Notes under the pieces: model-generated
Seen by the model: only the letters and a program-made list of their open reading frames with translations
Databases searched by the model: none
What the model was told of the DNA's origin: nothing
IMG/VR virus record: IMGVR_UViG_3300037067_013379
Coordinates: 1-64,000 of that record
Length of the DNA stretch: 64,000 nt
From: a virus
Taxonomy: Duplodnaviria; Caudoviricetes
Reading direction: 5' to 3' (one strand)
Shown: one piece after another, positions 4,645 through 63,085 of the stretch
Layout of the letters: each line of letters opens with the position of its first letter
How positions within the stretch are numbered: the first letter of the stretch is position 1
Position numbers and translations under genes: made by a program

Positions 4645-6978
4645 ATGACCACCAACAAGGCACCACGGGAAGGGACCATGGAACGCCGGCTGGACTACCA
4701 GGACCTCGACAGCATCGAACCGGCCCCCAACAACCCCAAGGAACACCAGATCGACAACGTCCGGGCCAGCATCGACCGATTCGGCTACGTCGCACCAATG
4801 ATCATCGACGACCGAACCGGCCGACTCGTCGTAGGCCACGGACGCCTCGAATCACTCAAGGCCCGACGCGACGCGGGCGAGACCCCACCAGAGGGAATCC
4901 AAACCGACGACACCGGCCGCTGGCTCGCCCCCGTCATCCACGGCTGGGCCTCCCGCTCCGACGCGGACGCAGCCGCCTACCTCGTCCTCGACAACCGCCA
5001 AACCGAACTCGGAGGCTGGGACCACCAGGCCCTATCCGACCTGTTGGAAGAGATCGGAGACCCCGACCTCATCGAACTCACCGGCTGGGACCCGGCCGAC
5101 CTTGAGGAACTCCTCGCCAACATCGACAACGACGACGACGGCCTCGGGCTGGGGGACGGCACCGGCAACCCCTCCCTCGCCGACCGGTTCGGCGTACCCC
5201 CGTTCGATGTCCTCGACGCACGGCAGGGCTACTGGCGCGACCGGAAGCGCTCCTGGCTCCGCCTCGGCATCAAGTCCGAGATCGGCCGGGGAGACCGGTT
5301 GGCGTTCAAGGGCATCGAACGGGCCGACCCGCAGTACTACCAGAAGAAGACCGCCGTGGAGGCCCGCATCGGCCACGCGTTGACCAGCAAGGAATTCTTC
5401 GACCACCACTACGAGGCCCCCACCGAGGGACCCGGCACCGGAACCAGCATCTTCGACCCAGTCCTCTGCGAACTCGTCTACCGCTGGTTCACCCCACCGG
5501 GCGGAAACGTCCTCGACCCGTTCTCCGGGGGATCCGTCCGGGGAATCGTCGCAGCCGCGACCGGACGCCGGTACCACGGCGTTGACCTCCGCGCCGAACA
5601 GTTGGACGCGAACCGCGCCCAGGCCCAACAGATCCTCGCCCCCGGCATGTCCACCACCCCGGAGGTCGGAACCGTCGACGACCCGGCCGCGTTGACCCCG
5701 ATCGAGTCCCACGGCGGATACCTCGTCAAACGTGACGACCTGTTCCAAGTCGGTGGATCCCGGGGCGGGAAGGTCCGCACGTGCCTCGCCCTCATGACAC
5801 AACCCGACGTCGCCGGAGTCGTCACGGCCGGATCCCGACACTCACCCCAGGTCAACATCGTCGCGACGATCGCCGAGCGCCTCGGCCTCCCCTGCCGCGT
5901 TCACGTCCCGTCCGGCGACACGACCCCGGAACTCGCCGCAGCAGCGGCAGCCGGAGCCGAGGTGATCCAGCACAATCCCGGATACAACAACGTGATCATC
6001 AAACGGGCCAGGGACGACGCGGACGCGCTCGGCTGGTTGAACGTCCCGTTCGGCATGGAGTGCGAGGAGGCCGTCAAACAGACCGCCCGACAGACCCGGA
6101 ACCTCGACACCGTCACCCCGACCCGCATCGTCGTACCCGTCGGGTCCGGCATGTCCCTCGCCGGGATCCTCACCGGCCTGGCAGCCACCGGCAACACCAC
6201 CCCGGTACTCGGGGTGATCGTCGGAGCCGACCCCACTGAGCGCCTCGGCACCTACGCCCCCCCTGGTTGGCGAACCATGGTCGAACTCGTCGAGTCGAAC
6301 TACGACTACGCCGACCACCACCCGGCACCGTTCCTCGGGGACCTCGACCTCGACCCGGTGTACGAGGCGAAATGCCTGCCCCACCTCCTACCCGGCGATC
6401 TCCTGTGGGTGGTCGGACGGAGGGAGACCGCCGGTGGTCCGGCCGCTGCGATCGTCGACCACCCGCACATGCCCGAGTGGACGTGTGGGGACAGTTCGGT
6501 TGTGGTCCCCCGGCTCCCGGCCGAATCGGTCGACCTGATCTTCACCTGCCCCCCGTACTACGACCTGGAAACCTACGGGGACGACCCGGCCGACCTGTCG
6601 ACCATGGGCTATGACGAGTTCGACCAGGTGTACGAACAGATCATCGGGGCGGCAGTCGCCGTGCTCCGCCCCAACCGGTTCGCCGTGATCGTCACCGGGG
6701 ACGCGCGGGACAAACACGGCACCCTCCACGACCTACGGGGTGAGACAATCCGGGCCGCGACCAGGGCCGGACTCCGCTACGTCAACGGCGCTGTCCTCGT
6801 CACCCCAGTCGGTTCAGCGGCCGTCACAGCGGCCCGGGGGTTCGTTGGTACCCGCACCCTCGGCCGGGTCCACCAAGACGTGTTGGTGTTCGTCAAGGGC
6901 GACCGGAAGGCAGCGGCCGTGAACTGTGGGGACGTCGAACTCGAACTCGAAGCCATCGAACCGGAATCCGGCGACTGA
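4645..6978 (+). CDS. ParB-like domain + amino-DNA methyltransferase split by a fold-type-II PLP-dependent domain
   Basis: ParB: NNPKEH, IDRFGYVAP, GHGR, DNR. MTase motif I VLDPFSGGS (5509-5535) and motif IV TCPPY (6544-6558). Between them LTP..LVKRDD..GGK, GSGMS and LDPVYEAK of the ACC deaminase/D-cysteine desulfhydrase-like family. Confidence 0.85.
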   Translation: MTTNKAPREGTMERRLDYQDLDSIEPAPNNPKEHQIDNVRASIDRFGYVAPMIIDDRTGRLVVGHGRLESLKARRDAGETPPEGIQTDDTGRWLAPVIHGWASRSDADAAAYLVLDNRQTELGGWDHQALSDLLEEIGDPDLIELTGWDPADLEELLANIDNDDDGLGLGDGTGNPSLADRFGVPPFDVLDARQGYWRDRKRSWLRLGIKSEIGRGDRLAFKGIERADPQYYQKKTAVEARIGHALTSKEFFDHHYEAPTEGPGTGTSIFDPVLCELVYRWFTPPGGNVLDPFSGGSVRGIVAAATGRRYHGVDLRAEQLDANRAQAQQILAPGMSTTPEVGTVDDPAALTPIESHGGYLVKRDDLFQVGGSRGGKVRTCLALMTQPDVAGVVTAGSRHSPQVNIVATIAERLGLPCRVHVPSGDTTPELAAAAAAGAEVIQHNPGYNNVIIKRARDDADALGWLNVPFGMECEEAVKQTARQTRNLDTVTPTRIVVPVGSGMSLAGILTGLAATGNTTPVLGVIVGADPTERLGTYAPPGWRTMVELVESNYDYADHHPAPFLGDLDLDPVYEAKCLPHLLPGDLLWVVGRRETAGGPAAAIVDHPHMPEWTCGDSSVVVPRLPAESVDLIFTCPPYYDLETYGDDPADLSTMGYDEFDQVYEQIIGAAVAVLRPNRFAVIVTGDARDKHGTLHDLRGETIRAATRAGLRYVNGAVLVTPVGSAAVTAARGFVGTRTLGRVHQDVLVFVKGDRKAAAVNCGDVELELEAIEPESGD

Positions 6979-30715: not shown

Positions 30716-31774
30716 TTAGCGGGTCGCTGTGGTGCGGCCCCGTGCCCGTTGGAGTGCCGGGATCTGTGCGAACAGGTCCCGTGCCCGTGTCGGGGCGGAC
30801 GTCGCGGGGGCGATCGTCGGCCCGTCCGGGGTCGCCCCTCGGCGTTCCCCCTCGCAGCACGCGCAGGACCCGGCAGGTTGGCCAGGGTGACGTCCGCAGT
30901 CGTTCTTGGGGTCCTTGGGTGGGGCTGGTACGAACACGGCGCCAGGGATCCACCAGGGGCCGCGAGCGATGATGCGTTGCGGACCGGCCGTGGTCGGCCC
31001 GTACGTCTTGCCCTCGGCGAGTTCGATGATGACCTGGTAGGCGACCGGGGCGGGTAGTCCATCGGTGATCGCCTGCCGAATCGCTGCCCGGACGACTTCC
31101 GGTTTCCAGGTGGGTTGGTGGCGGATCGCGTCCATGATCGCTTTGGTTTCCTCGTCGGAGGTTTCCTCCCCCCCCGTTTTGGGGTCGGCTACGACGGTGG
31201 GTGCCGGTGGTGCGGGGGGTAGGGGGGAGTTCTTCTTGGTACTTCTTAAAGCAGGTACTTCTTCCTTTAACGACGGCTGGTTAGGGCCTAAAGATCCGTC
31301 GATGGTGTGACCTGCGGAAACGTTGTCTTTCCGCTGCTCGTCACCGTTGACGTGTTCACCATCGACGGAACCACCATCGACGGTGGATCCGTCGATGGTC
31401 GGGATATCACCGGCGAACGGGTCGAACCCCTTCGGGCGGGCCTTCATGAATACCCTCCACTCCCAACGGAACCGGCCGTGTCCCATGTTGACGCGTCGGG
31501 TGTACAGGTACCGCTTGTCGCGGAGGCCCTTGAGGATCGACGAGATCTTGTCGCGTCCCAGTTCGGGGGCGAGGTCGTTGATGCCAGCCCGGGACGTGTT
31601 CCACTGCCGGCCGGTTCCGGGGCGGAGGGTGAGGAGCGCGGCGAGCATGCCGCGTTCGTGGAGGGTGAGTCCGGCGTAGTCGTCCTCGCCCCGGTGGAGG
31701 GCGTTCGGGGATATCAGGAAGTGGTCGGCGAGGGACTCGGTGATGATCCCGATCTCGATGTCGGACGTGGTCAT
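30716..31774 (-). CDS. Phage replication initiator (N-terminal winged HTH, internal iterons)
   Basis: F..SPN...LTL.ERG.LAALL...W...G.D.I...L..L...YL pattern; low-complexity linker carrying CCATCGACGG repeats. Confidence 0.72.
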   Translation of the reverse strand: MTTSDIEIGIITESLADHFLISPNALHRGEDDYAGLTLHERGMLAALLTLRPGTGRQWNTSRAGINDLAPELGRDKISSILKGLRDKRYLYTRRVNMGHGRFRWEWRVFMKARPKGFDPFAGDIPTIDGSTVDGGSVDGEHVNGDEQRKDNVSAGHTIDGSLGPNQPSLKEEVPALRSTKKNSPLPPAPPAPTVVADPKTGGEETSDEETKAIMDAIRHQPTWKPEVVRAAIRQAITDGLPAPVAYQVIIELAEGKTYGPTTAGPQRIIARGPWWIPGAVFVPAPPKDPKNDCGRHPGQPAGSCACCEGERRGATPDGPTIAPATSAPTRARDLFAQIPALQRARGRTTATR

Positions 31775-42213: not shown

Positions 42214-45200
42214 ATGGCGAAATCCGGGCAGGCATCAGTCGAAATTTTGGCTGACTTTGCCCGATTCGCGTCGACGTTCCAGCGGGATCTGAACGCGGCC
42301 CTCCGCGGCGTCACCCTCGACATGAGCGGGATCTCGGACCAAATCGCGAACGGGGTCCGCCGCGGGGTCGACGAGGCGAACCACGAGTTCCGGCGACTAG
42401 GCGACCAGGCCGGCGACTCGTTCAACATCATCACACAGCAGTCGTCGCAGGCGGGCCGGTCGATGGCCGCGTCGTTCGCCGCCGCGGGTCGGCAGATGTC
42501 GGGCATCGGCGACGACATGACGTTGGCGATCAGCCTCCCGATCGCCGCCGCGGGTACCGCGACCGTGCATACGGCCGGCGACTTCGAACAGGCCATGAAC
42601 AAGGTGAAGGCCGCGACGGAGTCGTCCGGGAAGGAGTTCACGGACCTCCGCAACCTGGCCATCGACCTCGGGTCGACCACGGCGTTCAGTGCGTCCGAAG
42701 CCGCGTATGCCATGAACGAGTTGGCGACGGCCGGTTTCGACACGAACGAGATCATGGGGGCGTTGCCGGGTGTCCTCGACATGGCCGCCGCCGGGTCGGT
42801 GTCGCTGTCGGACGCGGCCGAGATCGCATCGGGGATCCTGAACGGGTTCGGGTTCGCCGCCACCGACCTGTCGTACGTCAACGACGTTCTCGCGCGCGAC
42901 TTCCTGGCCACCGCAACAAACCTGTCAGATTTGGGCGAGTCGTTCAAATATGTAGGGCCTACAGCGAAATCAGCGGGTTTGACGTTCACGGAGGTCGCGG
43001 CGGCGATCGGCCTGATGGGTAACGCCGGAATCAAAGGCTCGATGGCCGGCACCGCCCTCAACGCCTCCATCTCCCGCCTGCTCAAGCCGACGGGCGAGGT
43101 CGAGACGACCCTGCGGAACCTCGGCGTGACCGTCACAAACTCGTCAGGGAAACTCCTGCCCCTCGTCGACATCATGCGGCAGTTGGAGGCGGCGGGGGCC
43201 GACACCACCGACATGATCACCCTGTTTGGGCTCGAGGCCGGCCCGGACATGATGGCGTTGTTGTCCCAGGGATCCGCGGCCCTCGCCAACCTCGACCAGC
43301 AACTACAGAACGCCGGTGGCACGGCCAAGAAGGTTGCCACGACGCAGATGGCGGGCTTCAACGGCTCGATGGACGAACTGTCGTCGTCCGCCGAGGGCCT
43401 GATGATCGCGATCGGTGACGCCGGCCTCCTCGGGTGGATGACGTCGCTCGTCGACGAGCTCACGCAGTTGACGATGAAGGCGTCGAAACTGTCCCCGACG
43501 CTGCTAAACATCGCGGTGATCGTCGCGGCCATCACTGCGGCGATCGGCCCGTTCCTCGCGATCTTCGGCCGGATGGCCACCGCGATCGGCGAGGGGATCC
43601 TGGCGTTCAAGAAGTTCGGGTCGTGGGCGGTTCGGGTTGCGCCGTGGCTGGCGACGCTGTCCGGGCCGATCGGCTGGGTGATCGCCGCCGTCATCGCCCT
43701 CGCGATCGCCGCGGTGGTCGCGTACAACAAGTGCGAGGCGTTCCGGGTCGTCGTCGACCGGGCGTTCCGGGCCGTGGCCACGGCGGCCGTGTGGATGTGG
43801 CAGAACGCGATTATGCCCGCGTTCAACTGGATCGTCGCGAACGCGAAGGTCGTTGGGGCCGCGATCGCCCGACTGTGGCAACAGTCTCAGCCGGTGTTCG
43901 CGGCATGGGGTGCGGCCATCCTCCGCATCTGGAACTCGGCGATAAAGCCGGCGCTCGGGCCGATCGGCGAGTCGTTCAAGACGGCCGGATCGGCGATCTC
44001 GGCATTCTGGTCCGGCACGGCCCGGCCCGCCCTGGTGTCCCTGCTGGCGTTGTTCGCACGGGTCGCCGTGGCGGTCCGGGCATGGTGGGCGGGTAACGGC
44101 GACACGGTCATGCGCTCGGCTGCGGCCGTCGTGACGTGGTTCGGTGGCGTGGCGTTCCAGGCGTGGACGCGGTTCATGGCGGTGCTGCGGGCGGTCGCCG
44201 CAGTGATCACGTGGGTGATCGTCAACGTCACGATCCCCCTTGCGAAGGCGCTGATATCGGTCATCCGGACCGTGGTCACGACCGTGATGTCGATGAAGAA
44301 CGTGTGGATCGTGGTCGGCGCTGTGATCGTCGCGGCCGTGCTGGTCGTGGTCGCGATCGTCAAGGTTCTGTGGACGGCGTTCAACACGATCGTTCCGGCG
44401 GTTGCCGCCATCGTCACCTGGCTGGTCACCACGATCGTCGTCCCGATGTTCACCGCGCTGGGTGTGGCGGTCAAGGCGTTCGTCGCGGTGCTGACGTGGA
44501 TGTGGACGTCGGTGATGTCCCCGGTGTTCTCGGCCCTCGGCGCGGCCCTGAACGTCGTCGGTGGCGTGGTCATCTGGCTGTGGACGTCGGTGTTTGTTCC
44601 GGCGTTCCGGGCGGTCGCGGCCGTGGTGTCGTGGATGTGGAACACGGTCCTGATGCCGGTGTTTACCGCGATCGCGGTAGCGATCGGCGCGGTCGTTGCT
44701 GTCGGCATATGGTTTTGGACCACGTTCGGTCCGATTTGGTTGGCTATTGGTAGCCTGATCTGGTCGTTGTGGTCCGGCGTCATTTCTGTCGTTTTTTCCC
44801 TGTTCAAACTTGCATTCACGGTGCTCGTTGCCGCCGCACAGGTCTGGTGGACGGTCGTCGGGGCGGTGTTCATGGCCGTCGCAGCCGTCATCGTCGCCGT
44901 GTGGTCCGGCGTGATCGCCCCGATCCTGAACGCGATCGGCGCCCTGTTCACCTGGCTATGGTCCGCGGCGATCCAGCCGGCCCTGACCGCTATCGGCGCG
45001 TTCTTCATGTGGCTGTGGACCGCGGCCATAGCCCCGGTCGTATCCGGCATCTCAAGCGCCTTCATGTCGATGTGGGCCGTGATCCAGGCCGTGTTCAACG
45101 CGGCCGTGTCGTTCATTCGCGCGGCGATCTCCCAGATCGTGGCGGCAGCCTCCGGCGTCGTCGGCTTCGTCAACACGATCTCCTCCCACTTCCAAAACGC

Positions 45201-45795
45201 GGTCAACGCGATACGCGACAAGATCAACGCCGCTGTCGGGGTCGTCCGCGGCCTCCCCGGACAGATCACCTCCGCGGTCGGCAACCTCGGATCCCTGCTC
45301 TACAACGCCGGACAGAACGTCATCGACGGCCTCATCAGCGGAATCTCGAGCCGCATCGGATCCCTACGGGCGAAGATCGGGGAGGCGGCCGGGGCCATCC
45401 GCGATTCGCTGCCGTTCAGTCCGGCGAAGGAAGGGCCGCTGTCGGGTTCCGGCGACCCCACCATCTCCGGCGGCAAGATCGTGCGGATGATCGGCCAGGG
45501 CATGGAGGCCCGGATACCAGACCTCCGGTACTCGGTCGACCGTGTCCTGGCCACCATGCCCGAACAACTCGTCGACATGAAGACACTGGCACCGGCCACC
45601 GCGACACTCACCCCGACGTCGACCCGCGTCCTCGTTCCGGCAACCGCCACCACAGCCGCAACCGCCGCCGGTGCCGGAACCACGGTCAACTACCAAATCA
45701 CGGTCAACGCACTCGACCCGCAGGCGGCGGCACGGGCCGTCATCGACGCAATCCAGACCTACGAGAGACGCAACGGCAAGGGGTGGCGGGCATGA
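42214..45795 (+). CDS. Tape measure protein (TP901-type core)
   Basis: FEQAMNKVKA...LGSTTAFSASEAA..., GIKGSMAGTAL; long Trp/Ala periodic region. Confidence 0.93.
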   Translation: MAKSGQASVEILADFARFASTFQRDLNAALRGVTLDMSGISDQIANGVRRGVDEANHEFRRLGDQAGDSFNIITQQSSQAGRSMAASFAAAGRQMSGIGDDMTLAISLPIAAAGTATVHTAGDFEQAMNKVKAATESSGKEFTDLRNLAIDLGSTTAFSASEAAYAMNELATAGFDTNEIMGALPGVLDMAAAGSVSLSDAAEIASGILNGFGFAATDLSYVNDVLARDFLATATNLSDLGESFKYVGPTAKSAGLTFTEVAAAIGLMGNAGIKGSMAGTALNASISRLLKPTGEVETTLRNLGVTVTNSSGKLLPLVDIMRQLEAAGADTTDMITLFGLEAGPDMMALLSQGSAALANLDQQLQNAGGTAKKVATTQMAGFNGSMDELSSSAEGLMIAIGDAGLLGWMTSLVDELTQLTMKASKLSPTLLNIAVIVAAITAAIGPFLAIFGRMATAIGEGILAFKKFGSWAVRVAPWLATLSGPIGWVIAAVIALAIAAVVAYNKCEAFRVVVDRAFRAVATAAVWMWQNAIMPAFNWIVANAKVVGAAIARLWQQSQPVFAAWGAAILRIWNSAIKPALGPIGESFKTAGSAISAFWSGTARPALVSLLALFARVAVAVRAWWAGNGDTVMRSAAAVVTWFGGVAFQAWTRFMAVLRAVAAVITWVIVNVTIPLAKALISVIRTVVTTVMSMKNVWIVVGAVIVAAVLVVVAIVKVLWTAFNTIVPAVAAIVTWLVTTIVVPMFTALGVAVKAFVAVLTWMWTSVMSPVFSALGAALNVVGGVVIWLWTSVFVPAFRAVAAVVSWMWNTVLMPVFTAIAVAIGAVVAVGIWFWTTFGPIWLAIGSLIWSLWSGVISVVFSLFKLAFTVLVAAAQVWWTVVGAVFMAVAAVIVAVWSGVIAPILNAIGALFTWLWSAAIQPALTAIGAFFMWLWTAAIAPVVSGISSAFMSMWAVIQAVFNAAVSFIRAAISQIVAAASGVVGFVNTISSHFQNAVNAIRDKINAAVGVVRGLPGQITSAVGNLGSLLYNAGQNVIDGLISGISSRIGSLRAKIGEAAGAIRDSLPFSPAKEGPLSGSGDPTISGGKIVRMIGQGMEARIPDLRYSVDRVLATMPEQLVDMKTLAPATATLTPTSTRVLVPATATTAATAAGAGTTVNYQITVNALDPQAAARAVIDAIQTYERRNGKGWRA

Positions 45796-53731: not shown

Positions 53732-55981
53732 TCAGACGAGCGTCCGGTGGTAGTACCGGTCGTCGACCTTGTCCAACTCGCCGTACTTGGTGGTCATGGC
53801 CTTCAATACCTCGAACAGGTTCCCCCGGCTGTACCGGAACCCCTCGGCGCGGAGGTTGGTCTCGATCTCCCCGGCCCGGAGGCCATTCGGATAGATGTCG
53901 GTCAACATCAGGTTGAGGCGCTCGCGGAGCGTCGTGGTTGGCGCCTCGGGGATGGTCTCCCCAATATCGGGCATAACGGTCGGGGTGGTGGTGCCGGCCG
54001 GCTCGACGTCGACGGGGCAGTGCCCTTCGAGCATCATGTGCTGCCCGCTGGTCAACGCCTCGAAGATGTCCGTGTCGGACGGGGTCGCGGTTTGGGTGGT
54101 GGTCCGGGCCTCCGCCGCTGGTTTCCGCCCGGTTCCCAACCGGTCGACCTGGTTGAGTAGGTTCGCCGTGGCGGACCCGGCTCGTGGTGCGGCCGGGGCC
54201 TCGGTGGTTGTGGTGGCCGAGCGTCGTCCGGCCTGGGTGTCGGGGTCCTCGCCCCGTTCGATGGCCGCGAGGCGCTCGGCGCGTCGCTGGTGCCTGCGGG
54301 TGTAGGCGGTTCCGTTGGTGACATCGACGAGCGCCGGGTGGTCCAGGAGTTCCTCGTAGTTCTCCGGGTCGCGTCCGGCGAACACGTCAACGAGTTTGAT
54401 ATTGGCGCAGATCGCCTGTCCGGCCTGGTCGAGTTCGGGGCGGAGGTTCGCGCAGTCGATCGCGTGCCGTTCGACGAACACGGGGGGGACGTCGACGGAT
54501 CGGCCGACGACCGGCCGGTAGTCCTGCGTGGTCCGGTAGACCCACGCGGAGCCGGTATGCATGAGGCGGACCCGGCCGGGGTTCCGGCCGAGGACGTGAT
54601 CGTATTCGCCTTCCTCGTCCATCCGGAGGCATACCCGGATGGAGCACACGGCGCGGAGGGCCTTGTCCAACAGGTCGGCCGTGCCGCGTAGGACGCTCAT
54701 GATGACCCGGACGCCGGTTTCCCGGCCGATCTGGGCGAGGCTGGAGATCTGGGAGCAGACGATCTGGCCGAGGACGCTGGCGGCCTGGCGGACCTCCCCG
54801 CCCTCGTCGGTGATGACGACGACGGCTGGTTTCTTGGGGGACACGGGGAGGACGTTGGTTCCCGCGTCGCGGCGCATCTGGACGGCTTCGCGGTCGGTCT
54901 TGCGGCCCTTCGCGATACCCTTCGCGCACGCCATGATCACGGCAGATTCCTCTTCGGTGTCGCCCAACCAGTCGATGATCGGCTTGGACACCTTGCCTTC
55001 CTCGAACGGCCGGTTCCACGGTGCGCCGAGTCCGCCACCGTTGAAGTCGATGACCCAGATCAGGGCGTCCGTGCACCGGGCGAGGTACGCGATGATGCGG
55101 TTCAGGAGGGTGGTCTTACCGCTGCCCGTGGTACCACCAATGATCATGCAGAAGATGCGGAGGCAGACCATGAACCAGTTGCCCTGCGGTGAGCGCATGA
55201 GCGGGAAGGGGTCGTTGATCGACGCGGGTGCCGGGGTCTCGTGGTCGTCGAGAAGGATGTGGTCCTTCAGGCAGTCGCGGAGCATGACCCGGATGACGGC
55301 CTCACACTGGTAGTCCCCGTCGAGGACGGTGACGACGCAGCCCTGTGGGAGTCGCAACTGTGGGGACGACTGGATCTTTCCGCACAGGTCGACGAGGTCC
55401 CGGGGTTCCATGCCCTCGACCAACGACACCCGGATGTCGATACCGTCGTCGGGGGTTTCCCACGGCTCGATCTTGATGACGGAGATGCTGGTCTTCGACA
55501 ATCGGCGGAGGAGGGCCTGCATGTCTTCCTCCTGCCGGGTGCGTCCGGGGGGCAGGCCGTAGTTCGGGTCTGCCGCTGCGGCTGCCGCCTCGGCCTCGGC
55601 CCGTGCGGCTTTCTCCGCTGCCGCTGCCGCCTCCAGTTCCTCCTTGGTTGGGGGGATTGGGAGGGCGAGCATGACGGTGGTGCCGGTGGCGACGCCCACG
55701 GCGAGGACGACGACTCCGAGGGCCGTGACTCCGGCCGCTGCCGCGACGCTGGCCCAGATCGAGCCGGCCGCGACGAACAGGGCCGTCACGGCGGCTCGGG
55801 GTGCCGTGGTGCGGGTGTACCGGGCCTCGTACGTGGCGATGGCGAGGAGCATGCCGGCCGCTGCTGGTACCACGGCCGGGATGCCTGGGATGGTGCGGCA
55901 TGCGAGTGCTGTGACGACCGGACCGAGGAGGCCGATCGTCGCGTAGGACGGGACGTGGTTGCTTGTGGTGGTGTGTTTCAC
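53732..55981 (-). CDS. traB: FtsK/SpoIIIE-family TraB-like conjugative DNA translocase
   Basis: N-terminal TM helices; Walker A GTTGSGKT; Walker B VVITDE; LAQIGR..G; C-terminal wHTH-like region. Confidence 0.8.
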   Translation of the reverse strand: MKHTTTSNHVPSYATIGLLGPVVTALACRTIPGIPAVVPAAAGMLLAIATYEARYTRTTAPRAAVTALFVAAGSIWASVAAAAGVTALGVVVLAVGVATGTTVMLALPIPPTKEELEAAAAAEKAARAEAEAAAAAADPNYGLPPGRTRQEEDMQALLRRLSKTSISVIKIEPWETPDDGIDIRVSLVEGMEPRDLVDLCGKIQSSPQLRLPQGCVVTVLDGDYQCEAVIRVMLRDCLKDHILLDDHETPAPASINDPFPLMRSPQGNWFMVCLRIFCMIIGGTTGSGKTTLLNRIIAYLARCTDALIWVIDFNGGGLGAPWNRPFEEGKVSKPIIDWLGDTEEESAVIMACAKGIAKGRKTDREAVQMRRDAGTNVLPVSPKKPAVVVITDEGGEVRQAASVLGQIVCSQISSLAQIGRETGVRVIMSVLRGTADLLDKALRAVCSIRVCLRMDEEGEYDHVLGRNPGRVRLMHTGSAWVYRTTQDYRPVVGRSVDVPPVFVERHAIDCANLRPELDQAGQAICANIKLVDVFAGRDPENYEELLDHPALVDVTNGTAYTRRHQRRAERLAAIERGEDPDTQAGRRSATTTTEAPAAPRAGSATANLLNQVDRLGTGRKPAAEARTTTQTATPSDTDIFEALTSGQHMMLEGHCPVDVEPAGTTTPTVMPDIGETIPEAPTTTLRERLNLMLTDIYPNGLRAGEIETNLRAEGFRYSRGNLFEVLKAMTTKYGELDKVDDRYYHRTLV

Positions 55982-56008: not shown

Positions 56009-57349
56009 TCAGGTGTCCTTTTGGGCTTCGCCGACGTCGGAGCGCTTCTCGCGTTCGACCCCGCCCCTCATTCCGGCGAGGCGGTCTTCGTCGCCGGTGT
56101 GTTCGGTGCGGTATAGGGGGCCGAGGGCGTTCGCGTTGCTGGCGATACGTCCGATGACCTCGGAGATCTTCGGCAGTTTGCTCAGGGACGCCTGGACGTC
56201 TGCCAGGAGGGCGACGAGTTTCGGCGAGGCTGGCAGTTCCTGCTCGCCTTGGGTGTGGAGGCGGACGACGGCCTGGGCGATGTTTTCCAGGTCGGCTTCG
56301 ACGCGTCGGAGTTCGCGCTGCTTCTCCAGGAGCGCTTGTTCGATGGATGGGAGGCACCGGCCCCATGCTTGCAGGCTCGGGGTGCCGTGGGTTTTGACCA
56401 TCTTGGTTGATCCTCCTTGGGGGTTGGCCGGTGTGTCGGGCGTTTCCTGACCGGCCGGTTCTTCTTCGTCGGTGTCGTCGGTGTCTTCGGGTTCGGTGTT
56501 GTTGGGGTCGTCCTCCTCGTCTTTGTCCTTGGGGCCGGCTGCGTCCCAGCCCTTCTTGATTTCTTCGGCGGTTCGGGTGAGGAATCCGGGGCGGTCGGAG
56601 TCGTCGTCGTTGCCCTTGTTCTTGCTTCGGTGGTCCTTGTCGCGGCCGTGGTGGTCCTTGTCGCGTCCGCCTCCAGGGCCGAAGAGGTCTCCGAGCCCGT
56701 TGCCGCGTCCTCCGGTTCCGTTGCCGCGTCCCCGGCCTCCGTTGGTGCCGGTGCCTCGTCCGCCTCCGGTGCCTCCGAAGAGACCGCCGAGGCCGCGTCC
56801 GCGTCCGCGTCCTCCGCCGGTGCCGTGTCCGCCGGTGCCGGTGCCGCGTCCGCGTCCTCCGAGGATGTTTCCGAGGCCGCGTCCCCGGCCGGTGCCGGTG
56901 CCGTGTCCGCTGGTGCCGGTGCCGCGTCCGCGTCCTCCGAGGAGTCCGGCGAGCCCGCGTCCCCGGCCGGTGCCGGTGCCGTGTCCGCTGGTGCCGGTGC
57001 CGCGTCCGCGTCCTCCGAGGATGTTTCCGAGGCCGCGTCCCCGGCCGGTGCCGGTGGCGCCTCTGCGGTTCCGTCCGAACTTGGCGAGGAACACGATCAG
57101 GGCGATCACGGCGATCGCGGCGTGGATGATGAGCCATCGTGTCCAGGAGCCGAGGGCTGCGACGAGGGCGAGTTCGGCCGTGGCTACGACCAGCGCGATC
57201 ACGATCACGGTCTCGCGGTTGATCTTCGGACGGCGACGCTGTGTAGTTGGTTTTGGGGTGGTGGTTGGGTCGGTTGGGGTTGGTGTGGGTGCGACCGGTG
57301 GGGTCGGTGGTGGTGGTGTGGGGGCGGGTGGTGGTGTCGGCGTAGTCAT
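56009..57349 (-). CDS. TraA/Spd-like membrane protein with Gly-Arg repeats
   Basis: Two TM helices; RG-rich repeats; C-terminal H..DEDR...R...E...DV as in genes upstream of actinomycete traB (recalled). Confidence 0.6.
   Translation of the reverse strand: MTTPTPPPAPTPPPPTPPVAPTPTPTDPTTTPKPTTQRRRPKINRETVIVIALVVATAELALVAALGSWTRWLIIHAAIAVIALIVFLAKFGRNRRGATGTGRGRGLGNILGGRGRGTGTSGHGTGTGRGRGLAGLLGGRGRGTGTSGHGTGTGRGRGLGNILGGRGRGTGTGGHGTGGGRGRGRGLGGLFGGTGGGRGTGTNGGRGRGNGTGGRGNGLGDLFGPGGGRDKDHHGRDKDHRSKNKGNDDDSDRPGFLTRTAEEIKKGWDAAGPKDKDEEDDPNNTEPEDTDDTDEEEPAGQETPDTPANPQGGSTKMVKTHGTPSLQAWGRCLPSIEQALLEKQRELRRVEADLENIAQAVVRLHTQGEQELPASPKLVALLADVQASLSKLPKISEVIGRIASNANALGPLYRTEHTGDEDRLAGMRGGVEREKRSDVGEAQKDT
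56822..57055 (-). repeat. Three tandem 78-bp coding repeats
   Basis: Encodes TGTGRGRGL(GNI/AGL)LGGRGRGTGT(S/G)GHG three times. Confidence 0.85.
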
Positions 57350-57519
57350 CGTTCCTCACTGTGTGTGACGTGTCTGGGGTGAGTGGTGTCTGGGTGTACT
57401 GGCGGTTTGGAGAAGGCCGGTTTCCAGGGATTTCGCGGCTGTCGGGGGGGTGTCGGGGTGACTGTCACCCCGTACACCCTGACACCCTGACAATAACACT
57501 GTGTAGATGGTGGCGCGTT

Positions 57520-57732
57520 TTAGAATGCGGACGCGATCCAGTTGATGAACGTGGTGACGCCGGAGACGACTCCGGCGATCCAGCCTCCGAATGCGGTGTC
57601 GGTGTCCCCGGCGATGTAACCGAGGGTGACGAACGCGAGGACCATCGCGCCGGTGGCGAGTCGTCTTGCGGAGAAGAAGATGTAGAGGCCGGCTGCTATG
57701 GCGAGGAGCGCGGCGAAGACGGACGAGGTCAC
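57520..57732 (-). CDS. Small two-TM Spd-like membrane protein
   Basis: Hydrophobic 70 aa within the tra cluster. Confidence 0.6.
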   Translation of the reverse strand: MTSSVFAALLAIAAGLYIFFSARRLATGAMVLAFVTLGYIAGDTDTAFGGWIAGVVSGVTTFINWIASAF

Positions 57733-58028
57733 GGTTTTGCCTCCAGATCGACGGTGTAGCGGGTGGTGGTGCCGTTGCGCATGGTTTCGACCTCGAACGT
57801 CGTGTGGTTGCGGAGGAGTTCGAGGGTCCAGACGCGGGCCTGGTCACGGGCGGGCTGCTCGGTGACGAACGTCGCGGGTTCGCGGAGTCGTCGGGTGTAG
57901 CAGTCGATGGCTGTGACGCGGTACGCCTGGGTGTTTCGGTAGAGGGTGATCTGCGCTCCCATGGGGGTCCGAACGGTGATCCACTCGTTGGTGTCGAGTG
58001 GGGTCTTGTTGTTCGGATGTTCCGTCAT
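57729..58028 (-). CDS. Hypothetical protein
   Basis: GGGGAG RBS; coupled to the next gene. Confidence 0.6.
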   Translation of the reverse strand: MTEHPNNKTPLDTNEWITVRTPMGAQITLYRNTQAYRVTAIDCYTRRLREPATFVTEQPARDQARVWTLELLRNHTTFEVETMRNGTTTRYTVDLEAKP

Positions 58029-58109
58029 CGCGCTCCCCCTAAATGGTCTCCCGTCAGTATACAGGCATGCCAGGAAATAGCCAACCTAGGGGGGCAGACT
58101 TGCGCGGGT

Positions 58110-58862
58110 CCCGTACGGCGTACGGGAACACGCCCCGTACGCCCCGTACGCCGAACCCCCGTACCAGGCAACCCCGTACGCCCCCGTACGCCCGTACGCC
58201 GTACGGGTCGGCCGTACGCCCCCGTACGCCCCGTACGCGAACACCGGGGACCCCGTACGCCCCGTACGTCGACACCCCGTACGGCCCCGGGCCGCGACTC
58301 CCCGTACGCCCCGTACGCCCGTACGCCCGCGCACCGTACGACCCCGCCTGTACGCCCATGCCCGTACGCCCCCCGCCCGTACGGGGACGGTTGGTGGGTA
58401 CGCCGTACGGGCTGTACTGGTTGGCGTCCCCGTACGGGGCCGTACGCCCGCACGGCCCCGTACGGGGTACGGCCCAGGGCAACGGTTGGTGTACGGCCGC
58501 GTACGGCCCGGCCGTACGGGAATCGCGTACGGGTACCGATCCGCGTACGGGCGGGTACGCCGTACGGCCCGTACGCCCGTACGGCGGTCGGACCGTACGC
58601 CCCGATCCCGTACGCCCCGTACACCAACCCCCGTACGGCCGCGTACGCCCCCGTACACCAACCACCCCGTACGCGTACCCCGTACGGCCCGTACGCCCGT
58701 ACGCCGGCCCCCGTACGGGCCGTACGGTCGGGATCGCGCCGTACGGGAAACCGCCCCGAACCATGATCGGATCGGGGCGTACGGGGCGTGCCGTACGGGG
58801 TCGTACGGGACCCGGACATGCGTACGCCCCCCGGTGGGTACGGGGGGCGTACGGGCCGTACG
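58110..58862. repeat. Dense irregular array of palindromic CGTACG (often CCCGTACG); candidate clt/TraB-binding locus
   Basis: About 48 exact CGTACG by manual count in ~750 bp, in all reading frames, with variable spacing. Confidence 0.85.
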
Positions 58863-58879
58863 GGGTGGTGTGGCGCACC

Positions 58880-59077
58880 TCACCATCCATCGGGATTGGT
58901 CAACATGTCGAGTGCCTCGGAGACGATCGTCTTCTCGTCGAGCCACGCGCGGGCCTGTTCGATGCCCTCGGCGACGAGTTCCCGGACCCGGGCCTCCGGC
59001 TCGTCCTGGCCGTAGAACGCGGCGTACTCGGCGATCGCTCGGGCGGCCCGGTATCCGGGGCGGCTGATGTCACTCAC
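58880..59077 (-). CDS. Small hypothetical protein
   Basis: AGGAGG RBS. Confidence 0.6.
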   Translation of the reverse strand: MSDISRPGYRAARAIAEYAAFYGQDEPEARVRELVAEGIEQARAWLDEKTIVSEALDMLTNPDGW

Positions 59078-59131
59078 GATGTCCTCCTACGGGGCGGCCC
59101 CCGGTGGTGTGCCGGGGGCCGGTGGGTGGTG

Positions 59132-59482
59132 TCACGCGGCACGGAGCGCCGTGGCGAGGTCCTCCGGGGTGGTGTCCTCGGTGAGGATGCGCGTGCGGTT
59201 CCGGAGGGTGGTGATGGCGGCCCGGACGCGGGTCTCGGTCGTGGCCGTCCGGACGGTCGCCATGAACTTGATGATCGTGTCGTACAACCGGGCGTCCGCC
59301 TTCGCGGCCCGTTCCACGGCAGCGGCCGTGGTGTACCGCTGGCCGGCTACCCGCGTGGGGCGGTTGGTGTTAGCGGCGAGGATCTTGTTGACGAGGCGGA
59401 ACGCCGTCCGGTTCGCGTCGATCGGGCCGATCGCGGTGTAGAGGTCGTTGATGGTGGTGAGGTGGTTCGTCGTCTGCGTCAT
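59132..59482 (-). CDS. Hypothetical protein, possibly leaderless
   Basis: ATG 7 nt after the TAGCGT -10 of the duplicated promoter. Confidence 0.6.
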   Translation of the reverse strand: MTQTTNHLTTINDLYTAIGPIDANRTAFRLVNKILAANTNRPTRVAGQRYTTAAAVERAAKADARLYDTIIKFMATVRTATTETRVRAAITTLRNRTRILTEDTTPEDLATALRAA

Positions 59483-59487
59483 GCCCC

Positions 59488-59532
59488 ATACGCTACCCGT
59501 GGCGTTAGGGGTTGTCGAGCTATAACGCTCAT
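59488..59532 (-). promoter_or_regulatory. Second copy of the 208-252 promoter/operator cassette
   Basis: 32 bp identical plus ATGAGCGTTA; 3 mismatches over 45 bp. Confidence 0.75.
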
Positions 59533-59614
59533 ACCTTTGGGCTTGATGCTGCGGAGTCTTCTGCCACCCATCCACCGGCCCCCGGTGGTGTGCCTGGGGC
59601 CGGTGGATGGGTGG

Positions 59615-62898: not shown

Positions 62899-63085
62899 TT
62901 TCCGCAGGTCGCACCATCGACGGATTTTCAGGGCATGGTAAATCCGTCAACGGGCGTGACCTGCGGAAAGGGGGTGTTTCCGCAGGTCGCACCATCGACG
63001 GCTGGTTAGGGCCTAACCAGCCGTCGTTAAAAGAAGAAGTACCTCTTTTAAGAAGTACCAAGAAGAAAAACCCCCCTACCCCCCG
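62899..63085. repeat. Origin-like segment: iterons, 31-bp perfect palindrome and A-rich tract, duplicating 31213-31320
   Basis: TTTCCGCAGGTCGCACCATCGACGG at 62899 and 62977; inverted variant at 62944-62969; palindrome at 62996-63026. Confidence 0.7.

Follow-up and report, generated by a model that had tools for sequence, protein, structure and literature searches.

The window analysed here (64,000 bp) is the first 64 kb of a single viral contig of 77,496 bp (66.6% GC), whose genes include that of a TP901-type tape-measure protein. The first 168 bp of the contig (1-168) recur at positions 77329-77496 (L086 14329-14496) with one mismatch, at position 127, which indicates that the genome is complete, circular or terminally redundant, and about 77,328 bp long; the record is classed as 'linear, no end repeats'. 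Several words typical of Streptomyces-type restriction sites are avoided in the contig, namely AGGCCT (2 copies against 19.7 expected), GGGCCC (7 against 47), CTCGAG (8 against 36), CCGCGG (23 against 90) and AGCT (24 against 80), and a TnpB/IS605 OrfB-type gene lies at contig positions 73572-74780 on the plus strand (L086 10572-11780), with matches to OrfB_IS605 (1e-32), a Cas12f-like TNB domain and a zinc ribbon. The phage lineage was found in groundwater, wastewater and landfill metagenomes as well as in other metagenome assemblies.

A sigma-70-like promoter heads an operon encoding, in this order, a 99-aa protein, a 70-aa transmembrane protein, a 446-aa membrane protein (G446) and a 749-aa TraB/FtsK-like protein, followed by further small and membrane proteins; upstream of the promoter, with its near end 27 bp from the -35 box, lies a dense array of the hexamer CGTACG (Table 1). 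Homologues of the 446-aa protein are also present at more distant TraB loci (L003, L095 and L096), the C-terminal domain being common to all, and its gene contains coding repeats with a 78-bp period (56680-57070, minus strand) that give rise to a Gly/Arg/Thr-rich, RGG-like tract. On the far side of the array, a GGDEF cyclase gene is conserved along with the gene for the 419-aa membrane protein. The latter adjoins the array directly in two relatives (L001 and L002), from which the cassette of 65-aa and 147-aa ORFs is absent, and the 65-aa ORF is found in two others (L089 and L092); with the cassette missing from L001 and L002, the distal edge of the array is a mosaic junction. A 35-bp G/C-rich hairpin is duplicated, with 94% identity, on either side of the 147-aa ORF (59095-59129 and 59576-59610).

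Table 1. Features of the CGTACG array and its surroundings (window coordinates).
Feature	Position	Strand	Remarks
TraB/FtsK-like dsDNA translocase, 749 aa	53732..55981	-	TM helices, Walker A, disordered linker, C-terminal winged helix (predicted)
C-terminal winged helix of TraB-like protein, aa 683-749	53735..53935	-	pLDDT 75-90; predicted recognition helix RYSRGNLFEVLKAM
Membrane protein, 446 aa	56009..57349	-	2 TM helices, Gly/Arg/Thr-rich repeat region, conserved C-terminal domain
Small membrane protein, 70 aa	57520..57732	-	Spd-like by position only
Orphan protein P0001, 99 aa	57729..58028	-	First operon gene; array directly upstream in every homologue found
Sigma-70-like promoter TTGGCT-17-TATACT	58056..58084	-	Strongly conserved block; 27 bp from first array site
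CGTACG array	58112..58862	-	60 GTAC cores, 48 exact CGTACG; unit on operon (-) strand ~GGCGTACGGG
Motif-free island AACCATGATCGGA inside array	58759..58771	.	Core present in 5/7 relatives
Distal border block	58821..58862	.	G/C-rich hairpin-like inverted repeat GCCCCCC ... GGGGGGC plus last 3-4 sites; in 7/7 arrays compared
Variable insert between 419-aa gene and array	58880..59575	-	65-aa and 147-aa ORFs, duplicated hairpins
Multi-TM membrane protein, 419 aa	59615..60874	-	Conserved just upstream of array

An earlier note on this DNA had reported about 48 copies of CGTACG in some 750 bp, where about 0.25 would be expected by chance. The count holds: 48 of the 85 copies in the window lie at 58112-58862. 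A k-mer count across the whole 77.5-kb contig finds 99 copies, 51 of them outside the array, which corresponds to a background of 0.50 per 751 bp in the rest of the contig; the chance expectation was thus of the right order of magnitude, and the array stands about 96-fold above background. Shuffling the array sequence while preserving its dinucleotides gave a mean of 10.6 copies and a maximum of 21, against 48 in the real sequence. Most of the degenerate copies read TGTACG, CGTACA or CGTACC. The array is not an artefact of assembly, since it recurs in identical form in independent metagenomes and is kept in relatives: a wastewater contig (X2) covers 57300-59124 with no differences and no gaps, and two landfill contigs (X3 and X4) match exactly over the parts of the region that they contain. 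We therefore consider it to be real and stable. No near-identical DNA was found in plasmid and phage collections. As to other kinds of element, a G-quadruplex zone was rejected, with just two or three G4-type motifs within the array, and a search for structured RNA in Rfam returned sub-threshold, miRNA-like noise only.

The array does not code for protein, and selection acts on its motif. GC3 periodicity is absent from all frames across it, whereas the genes on either side show third-position periodicity; 41 of the 48 gaps between three aligned relatives are not multiples of three; and the relatives have no open frame in common across the region. These three observations bear out the idea, put forward in the earlier note, that the constraint acts on DNA rather than on protein, and they rule out a protein-coding tandem repeat. 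The long ORFs that do run through the array are explained by the motif itself and by GC-rich spacers that lack stop codons. The three-way alignment, made with two related viral contigs whose TraB proteins are 85% identical and whose DNA in this region is about 75% identical, further shows that 65-70% of motif columns are invariant, against 40% of spacer columns.

One core starts 6 to 38 bp after the previous one, most often 9, 10, 7 or 14-15 bp, and Tandem Repeats Finder describes the array as a degenerate unit of 9-10 bp. Apart from this local preference for 9-10 bp, no long-range helical phasing of the sites was detected. Packaging (pac) sites and replication origins are built of clustered short repeats, and P1 pac uses palindromic hexamers; a degenerate tandem unit of this kind might on these grounds represent terminase small-subunit boxes or the iterons of an initiator. 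The setting speaks against both, and we think it very improbable that the array is either one. It is separated from the tape-measure gene (42214-45795) by more than 12 kb and lies in a membrane/pump operon, away from the head-tail block; its surroundings are 71% GC (over 1 kb) and have no AT-rich tract that could serve as an unwinding element; and other origin-like repeats are present at 31204-31385 and 62899-62982. The genes flanking the array matched no initiator family, though these genes are orphans.

The repeat was described in the earlier note as palindromic. This is true of the 6-bp core alone, since its flanks are asymmetric. Pooling of six arrays, in the orientation of the operon strand, shows G directly after the core in 76% of sites and G at the following position in 58%, whereas the mirror position before the core was C in only 43%. 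The longer words are correspondingly strand-biased, with 117 copies of CGTACGGG against 45 of its reverse complement, 76 of GCGTACGGG against 16, and 39 of GCGTACGGGG against 3, so that the 8-10-mer units are mostly co-oriented with a bias of 2.6- to 13-fold. The promoter-proximal two thirds of the sites are oriented toward the operon, while the distal eight or so, together with a small group in the middle, are mostly inverted, a pattern of polarity that recurs in all seven arrays compared. In the contig, 27 of the 36 copies of CCCGTACG and 16 of the 22 copies of CGTACGGG lie in the array, the remainder being without clear polarity. The repeat unit is thus an asymmetric 9-10-mer, GGCGTACGGG on the operon strand, that points mostly to the operon, a property newly described here.

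The same observations bear on the proposal that CGTACG, or GTAC, is the target of a DNA-modifying enzyme, such as the candidate ParB-methylase-PLP fusion encoded at 4645-6978, or of a host restriction enzyme, and that the array serves for loading, for marking or as a decoy. Palindromes like the 6-bp core are typical of type II sites, and the commonest degenerate copies, TGTACG and CGTACA, are the transition products of its outer C; transitions are, however, the commonest mutations anyway, and the conservation reaches asymmetrically past the palindrome. Outside the array, CGTACG occurs 51 times in 76.7 kb, against a Markov expectation of 49.8, and GTAC 334 times against 355 expected, unlike AGGCCT, GGGCCC, CTCGAG and CCGCGG, which are avoided 4- to 10-fold. 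With CGTACG neither avoided nor enriched elsewhere, the contig bears no signature of restriction or modification at this word, and we would give such an explanation, including the methylation target or decoy envisaged in the earlier note, only a very slight chance.

Ten distinct contigs yielded twelve related loci: three came from two IMG/VR contigs, one was an array-only IMG/VR locus and eight were on metagenome contigs. The array is present in every relative for which sequence upstream of the 99-aa gene was available, and these array-bearing loci are about 75-79% identical in DNA. Nine of the arrays are full-length; they measure 742-791 bp, contain 48-60 GTAC cores and occupy the same place. 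Measured from a conserved anchor close to where the 99-aa gene starts, they begin at about -70/-94 and reach to about -810/-857. A scan of 2.9 million viral contigs for three close CGTACG found dense arrays only in these relatives, unrelated phages reaching at most 6-16 copies, and we found no description of comparable phage arrays in the literature. Smaller intergenic clusters of 6-12 CGTACG were nonetheless seen in unrelated viral contigs (L073 7550-7850; L084 3430-3760, which is the same DNA as L016; L081 3780-3900; and L067 2760-2890). They often lie near divergent promoters or after a primase/helicase-like gene, and this hexamer may recur in other phages as the core of operators or iterons.

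What could bind the array? The first gene of the operon encodes the 99-aa orphan, whose predicted structure (pLDDT 85.6) consists of four strands, a helix and two further strands. It had no match in Pfam, NCBIfam or PHROGs, no clear structural match (Foldseek against the PDB, E of at least 0.02; VIA-align wide, Z of at most 5.8) and low-score leads only in the ESM Atlas, and a profile search of 1.8 billion representatives returned only four small unnamed relatives and two spurious fn3/PPC repeat proteins. The product of this gene, or another small phage regulator, might coat the ~750 bp and thereby silence, activate or buffer a potentially toxic TraB operon, in the manner of kil-kor systems, with no role in DNA transfer. 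Such a regulatory array or sink, the latter already named in the earlier note, stays plausible because of its adjacency to the promoter, the near end lying so close to the -35 hexamer of a conserved sigma-70-like promoter; it would also suit the position of the 99-aa gene as the first one after the array, to which it is linked in every relative found, the lack of a TraR/KorA-type repressor among the neighbouring genes scanned, and the operator-like, intergenic positions of the 6-12-copy CGTACG clusters in unrelated phage contigs. Against it stand the 99-aa protein itself, which is near-neutral in charge (by residue count) and has neither a family nor a recognisable DNA-binding fold (best Z 5.8, Foldseek E of at least 0.02), and the unit, which is asymmetric and co-oriented rather than dyad-symmetric. 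A comparable pile-up of another motif is moreover found at a TraB locus that has no 99-aa homologue (L096, see below), and 50-60 sites far exceeds any operator known to us. On balance, we regard a purely regulatory function as rather unlikely, although it is the strongest competitor of the docking role discussed below. The array is tied as strictly to the 99-aa gene as it is to TraB, so that linkage cannot separate the two as binder.

The other candidate binder is the TraB-like protein. Its three predicted N-terminal TM helices lie at aa 30-100 and its Walker A motif, GTTGSGKT, at position 283; it matches phrog_31069 at 5e-46 and is 25-34% identical (tblastn) to ORFs on plasmids of Streptomyces and other actinomycetes; some half of these ORFs are annotated as DNA translocase FtsK, the others being unnamed. 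Judged by its predicted domains, the 749-aa protein has the architecture described for TraB of pSVH1, i.e. TM helices, an ATPase and a C-terminal winged helix (PMC4447253). The fold match of the last of these is generic: about fifty winged-helix domains, including those of Fur, PadR, H1/H5 and Rpa2, match the model of aa 683-749 at Z 8-9.8, with no FtsK-gamma or TraB structure among the matches listed, and its sequence has no match among PDB sequences. Across the array-bearing relatives compared, the recognition helix RYSRGNLFEVLKAM shows a single F/Y change, while the whole pumps, where they could be aligned full-length, are 76-91% identical, and more distant TraB homologues (P0045-P0048) have similar or identical recognition helices. 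The nearest cellular relatives of the pump, found in a second scan of genome contigs (a first scan was empty), are in Micromonospora genomes, at 39-45% identity; they are M. costi CS1-12 and two Micromonospora sp. (L098, L099 and L100). Judging from these sequences, there are hints that the wider pump family has Micromonosporaceae-like hosts.

At one locus, a pump with a different recognition helix is accompanied by a different motif. In L096 (IMGVR_UViG_3300038549_000020), TraB is 46% identical, its recognition helix is LSRGRLYELLRDM and the 99-aa homologue is missing; here, 19-27 copies of CGCAGCG, biased to one strand and spread over all three frames, are piled up at 5350-6530, within the 1.2 kb that precede the G446-TraB pair and inside an ORF for a 474-aa membrane protein, a place that matches that of the CGTACG array. 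Inverted TGTCAGGGGTGACAG repeats follow this pile-up at 6580-6640. In the Thermobifida phage P1312 (KT021004, L008 9380-10700), repeat clusters likewise adjoin an FtsK-like gene. The stop codon of this gene is directly followed by GTGTCAC/GTGACA repeats, which resemble the TGACACC of the pWTY27 clt, and then by about 900 bp of GGACCGGTCC-type words inside annotated ORF 062. The arrays of both L096 and P1312 lie in coding, low-complexity sequence, so their enrichment may be partly compositional. L003, which has another recognition helix, has neither a CGTACG array nor the 99-aa gene, and no comparable motif pile-up was seen at this or other more distant TraB homologues (L106, L107 and Hiyaa). 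In L095 (IMGVR_UViG_3300033408_000004), TraB is 55% identical with a similar recognition helix, and the contig ends 1 kb upstream of traB. Its G446 homologue contains, at 190-490, about 20 near-perfect tandem repeats of 15-18 bp built on GGTACCGGC (Gly-Thr-Gly), which look like a recent coding expansion; the GGTACC repeats of this contig were rejected as an equivalent array, being a perfect coding Gly-Thr tandem repeat.

We therefore come back to the suggestion of the earlier note that the array is a clt locus recognised by TraB. In our analysis, the array may well be an oversized, clt-like docking array of the TraB-like pump that may double as an operator of the operon, a reading whose chances we put at about even. 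It is favoured, firstly, because TraB-type winged helices read asymmetric, co-oriented 8-10-mers in clt loci (PMC4447253, PMC3583192), and an asymmetric, strand-biased unit such as ours fits the monomeric reading of 8-bp direct repeats by a winged helix better than it does a dimeric binder of palindromes; secondly, because the recognition helix barely varies while the pumps diverge; and thirdly, because L096, with its different helix, has a different pile-up and no 99-aa homologue. The enrichment of the motif, its conservation, the frame-breaking indels and the repeat clusters beside the FtsK-like gene of P1312 are further points in its favour. As in clt loci, whose short direct repeats measure 5-9 bp, the element encodes a TraB/FtsK-like translocase and contains a cluster of mostly co-oriented 8-10-mers, the number of copies being about 6-15 times that of published examples. 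The parts of the suggestion that fit less well are the copy number (50-60 sites) and the position, which is not the usual one of published clt: the array is in the same operon region as traB, at the promoter and 2.1 kb upstream of the gene rather than at its 3' end. The linkage to the 99-aa gene, the generic nature of the fold match, the lack of a comparable pile-up at several more distant TraB homologues and the perhaps partly compositional enrichment in L096 and P1312 also count against it.

The array might alternatively maintain the phage genome, as a centromere-like site or membrane anchor that keeps a plasmid-like prophage in each hyphal compartment or spore, bound by an adaptor or by TraB acting as a segregation pump. 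The centromeres of F (sopC), R1 (parC) and TP228 (parH) are of comparable extent and likewise made up of many short repeats, and the phage genome is complete, judging from its 168-bp terminal repeat. SpdA/sps of pIJ101 provides an example of a tra/spd cluster with a short palindrome that can act on segregational stability instead of on transfer (PMC4170104). Yet no ParA-type ATPase was found: PF13614 (AAA_31) gave no match and PF01656 (CbiA) matched only the P-loop of TraB, at 14 bits. This makes a classical centromere, such as that for a ParB-like domain proposed in the earlier note, unlikely. Moreover, the search did not detect ParB_N (PF02195), and the sites are without the helical phasing used by filament-forming centromere binders. 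Maintenance in any of these forms seems improbable to us.

If the array is indeed the docking site of the TraB-like pump, one subunit of a membrane-anchored, TraB-like hexamer would read each ~9-10-bp unit GGCGTACGGG with its C-terminal winged helix, and the 50-60 close-packed units, most of them in one orientation, would bring many pump subunits to the phage replicon at the membrane. The units could also set the direction of ATP-driven translocation of dsDNA, either across hyphal cross-walls or into a neighbouring cell. With the array ending so close to the -35 box, occupancy by the pump may in addition feed back on transcription of the operon, a feedback that would stand in for the TraR/KorA repressor of plasmids. 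What the sequences show is the array itself, its conservation and lack of coding, the asymmetry and polarity of its unit, its closeness to the promoter and the domain architecture of the pump; binding, translocation and autoregulation by the pump are what we infer. In its most far-reaching form, which is possible but doubtful, this model has a polar 'mega-clt' of ~60 words load the TraB-type pump on the phage genome and throttle the operon promoter, the phage spreading as naked DNA through the mycelium or to neighbouring cells without virions. Should the array prove to be a TraB docking site, the phage lineage would spread in two ways, by virions and by a conjugation-like transfer of dsDNA, and from the size and polarity of the array and its closeness to the promoter, one would learn how pumps of the FtsK family are loaded onto a mobile replicon and oriented there. 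A short word and a small winged-helix domain make up a defined candidate protein-DNA pair. Even if the 99-aa protein is the binder, 50-60 sites in one array would be out of the ordinary for a regulatory or architectural element.

Several known systems resemble the array in part. Plasmid centromere arrays often double as the operator of the adjoining operon, and like the phage array, sopC, parC and parH consist of hundreds of bp of short repeats beside an operon promoter; in the phage, however, no partner NTPase was found among the families tested, and the spacing is irregular and unphased. FtsK reads KOPS (GGGNAGGG) and SpoIIIE reads SRS (GAGAAGGG), each with its gamma winged helix. The phage word is likewise polar and G-rich, has 8 bp and ends in GGG; its presumed reader is also a winged helix at the C-terminus of an FtsK-family motor, and the orientation bias of the word suggests directional loading. 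KOPS and SRS are, however, dispersed on the chromosome with a replichore skew, whereas the phage word is concentrated in a single locus, and its copies outside the array have no clear strand pattern (9 versus 6).

Within the tra/spd clusters of Streptomyces plasmids, the sps of pIJ101 is a 12-bp palindrome, CGTCACGTGACG, present in 1-3 copies inside or just before spdA (PMC4170104). As in SpdA2/sps, where a small protein from the plasmid's spread module binds a short palindrome (PMC4170104), the phage motif is kept while the surrounding DNA diverges; unlike there, the small 99-aa protein matched no family in the libraries scanned, and the sites number far more than the 1-3 of sps. The closest parallel is with clt/TRS. 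Published clt loci have 3-9 repeats within 50-175 bp; they are usually located within traB or behind it, but their positions vary, that of pIJ101 being near korB (PMC3583192), and it is 8-bp direct repeats in clt that the TraB-type winged helix reads (PMC4447253, PMC3583192). The phage array differs in that its core is a 6-bp palindrome within a polar unit, in that it lies at the head of the operon beside the promoter, 2.1 kb upstream of traB, and in that its carrier is a complete tailed-phage genome rather than a plasmid or AICE; binding and a requirement in cis are putative here. At ~750 bp and 48-60 sites, it is larger than published clt by roughly an order of magnitude. Both are nevertheless clusters of short repeats, asymmetric and for the most part direct, and in both, the element that carries them encodes a hexameric, FtsK-like pump that is anchored in the membrane and has a winged helix at its C-terminus (predicted for the phage); the repeats also share a gene cluster with the pump and with Spd-like membrane proteins.
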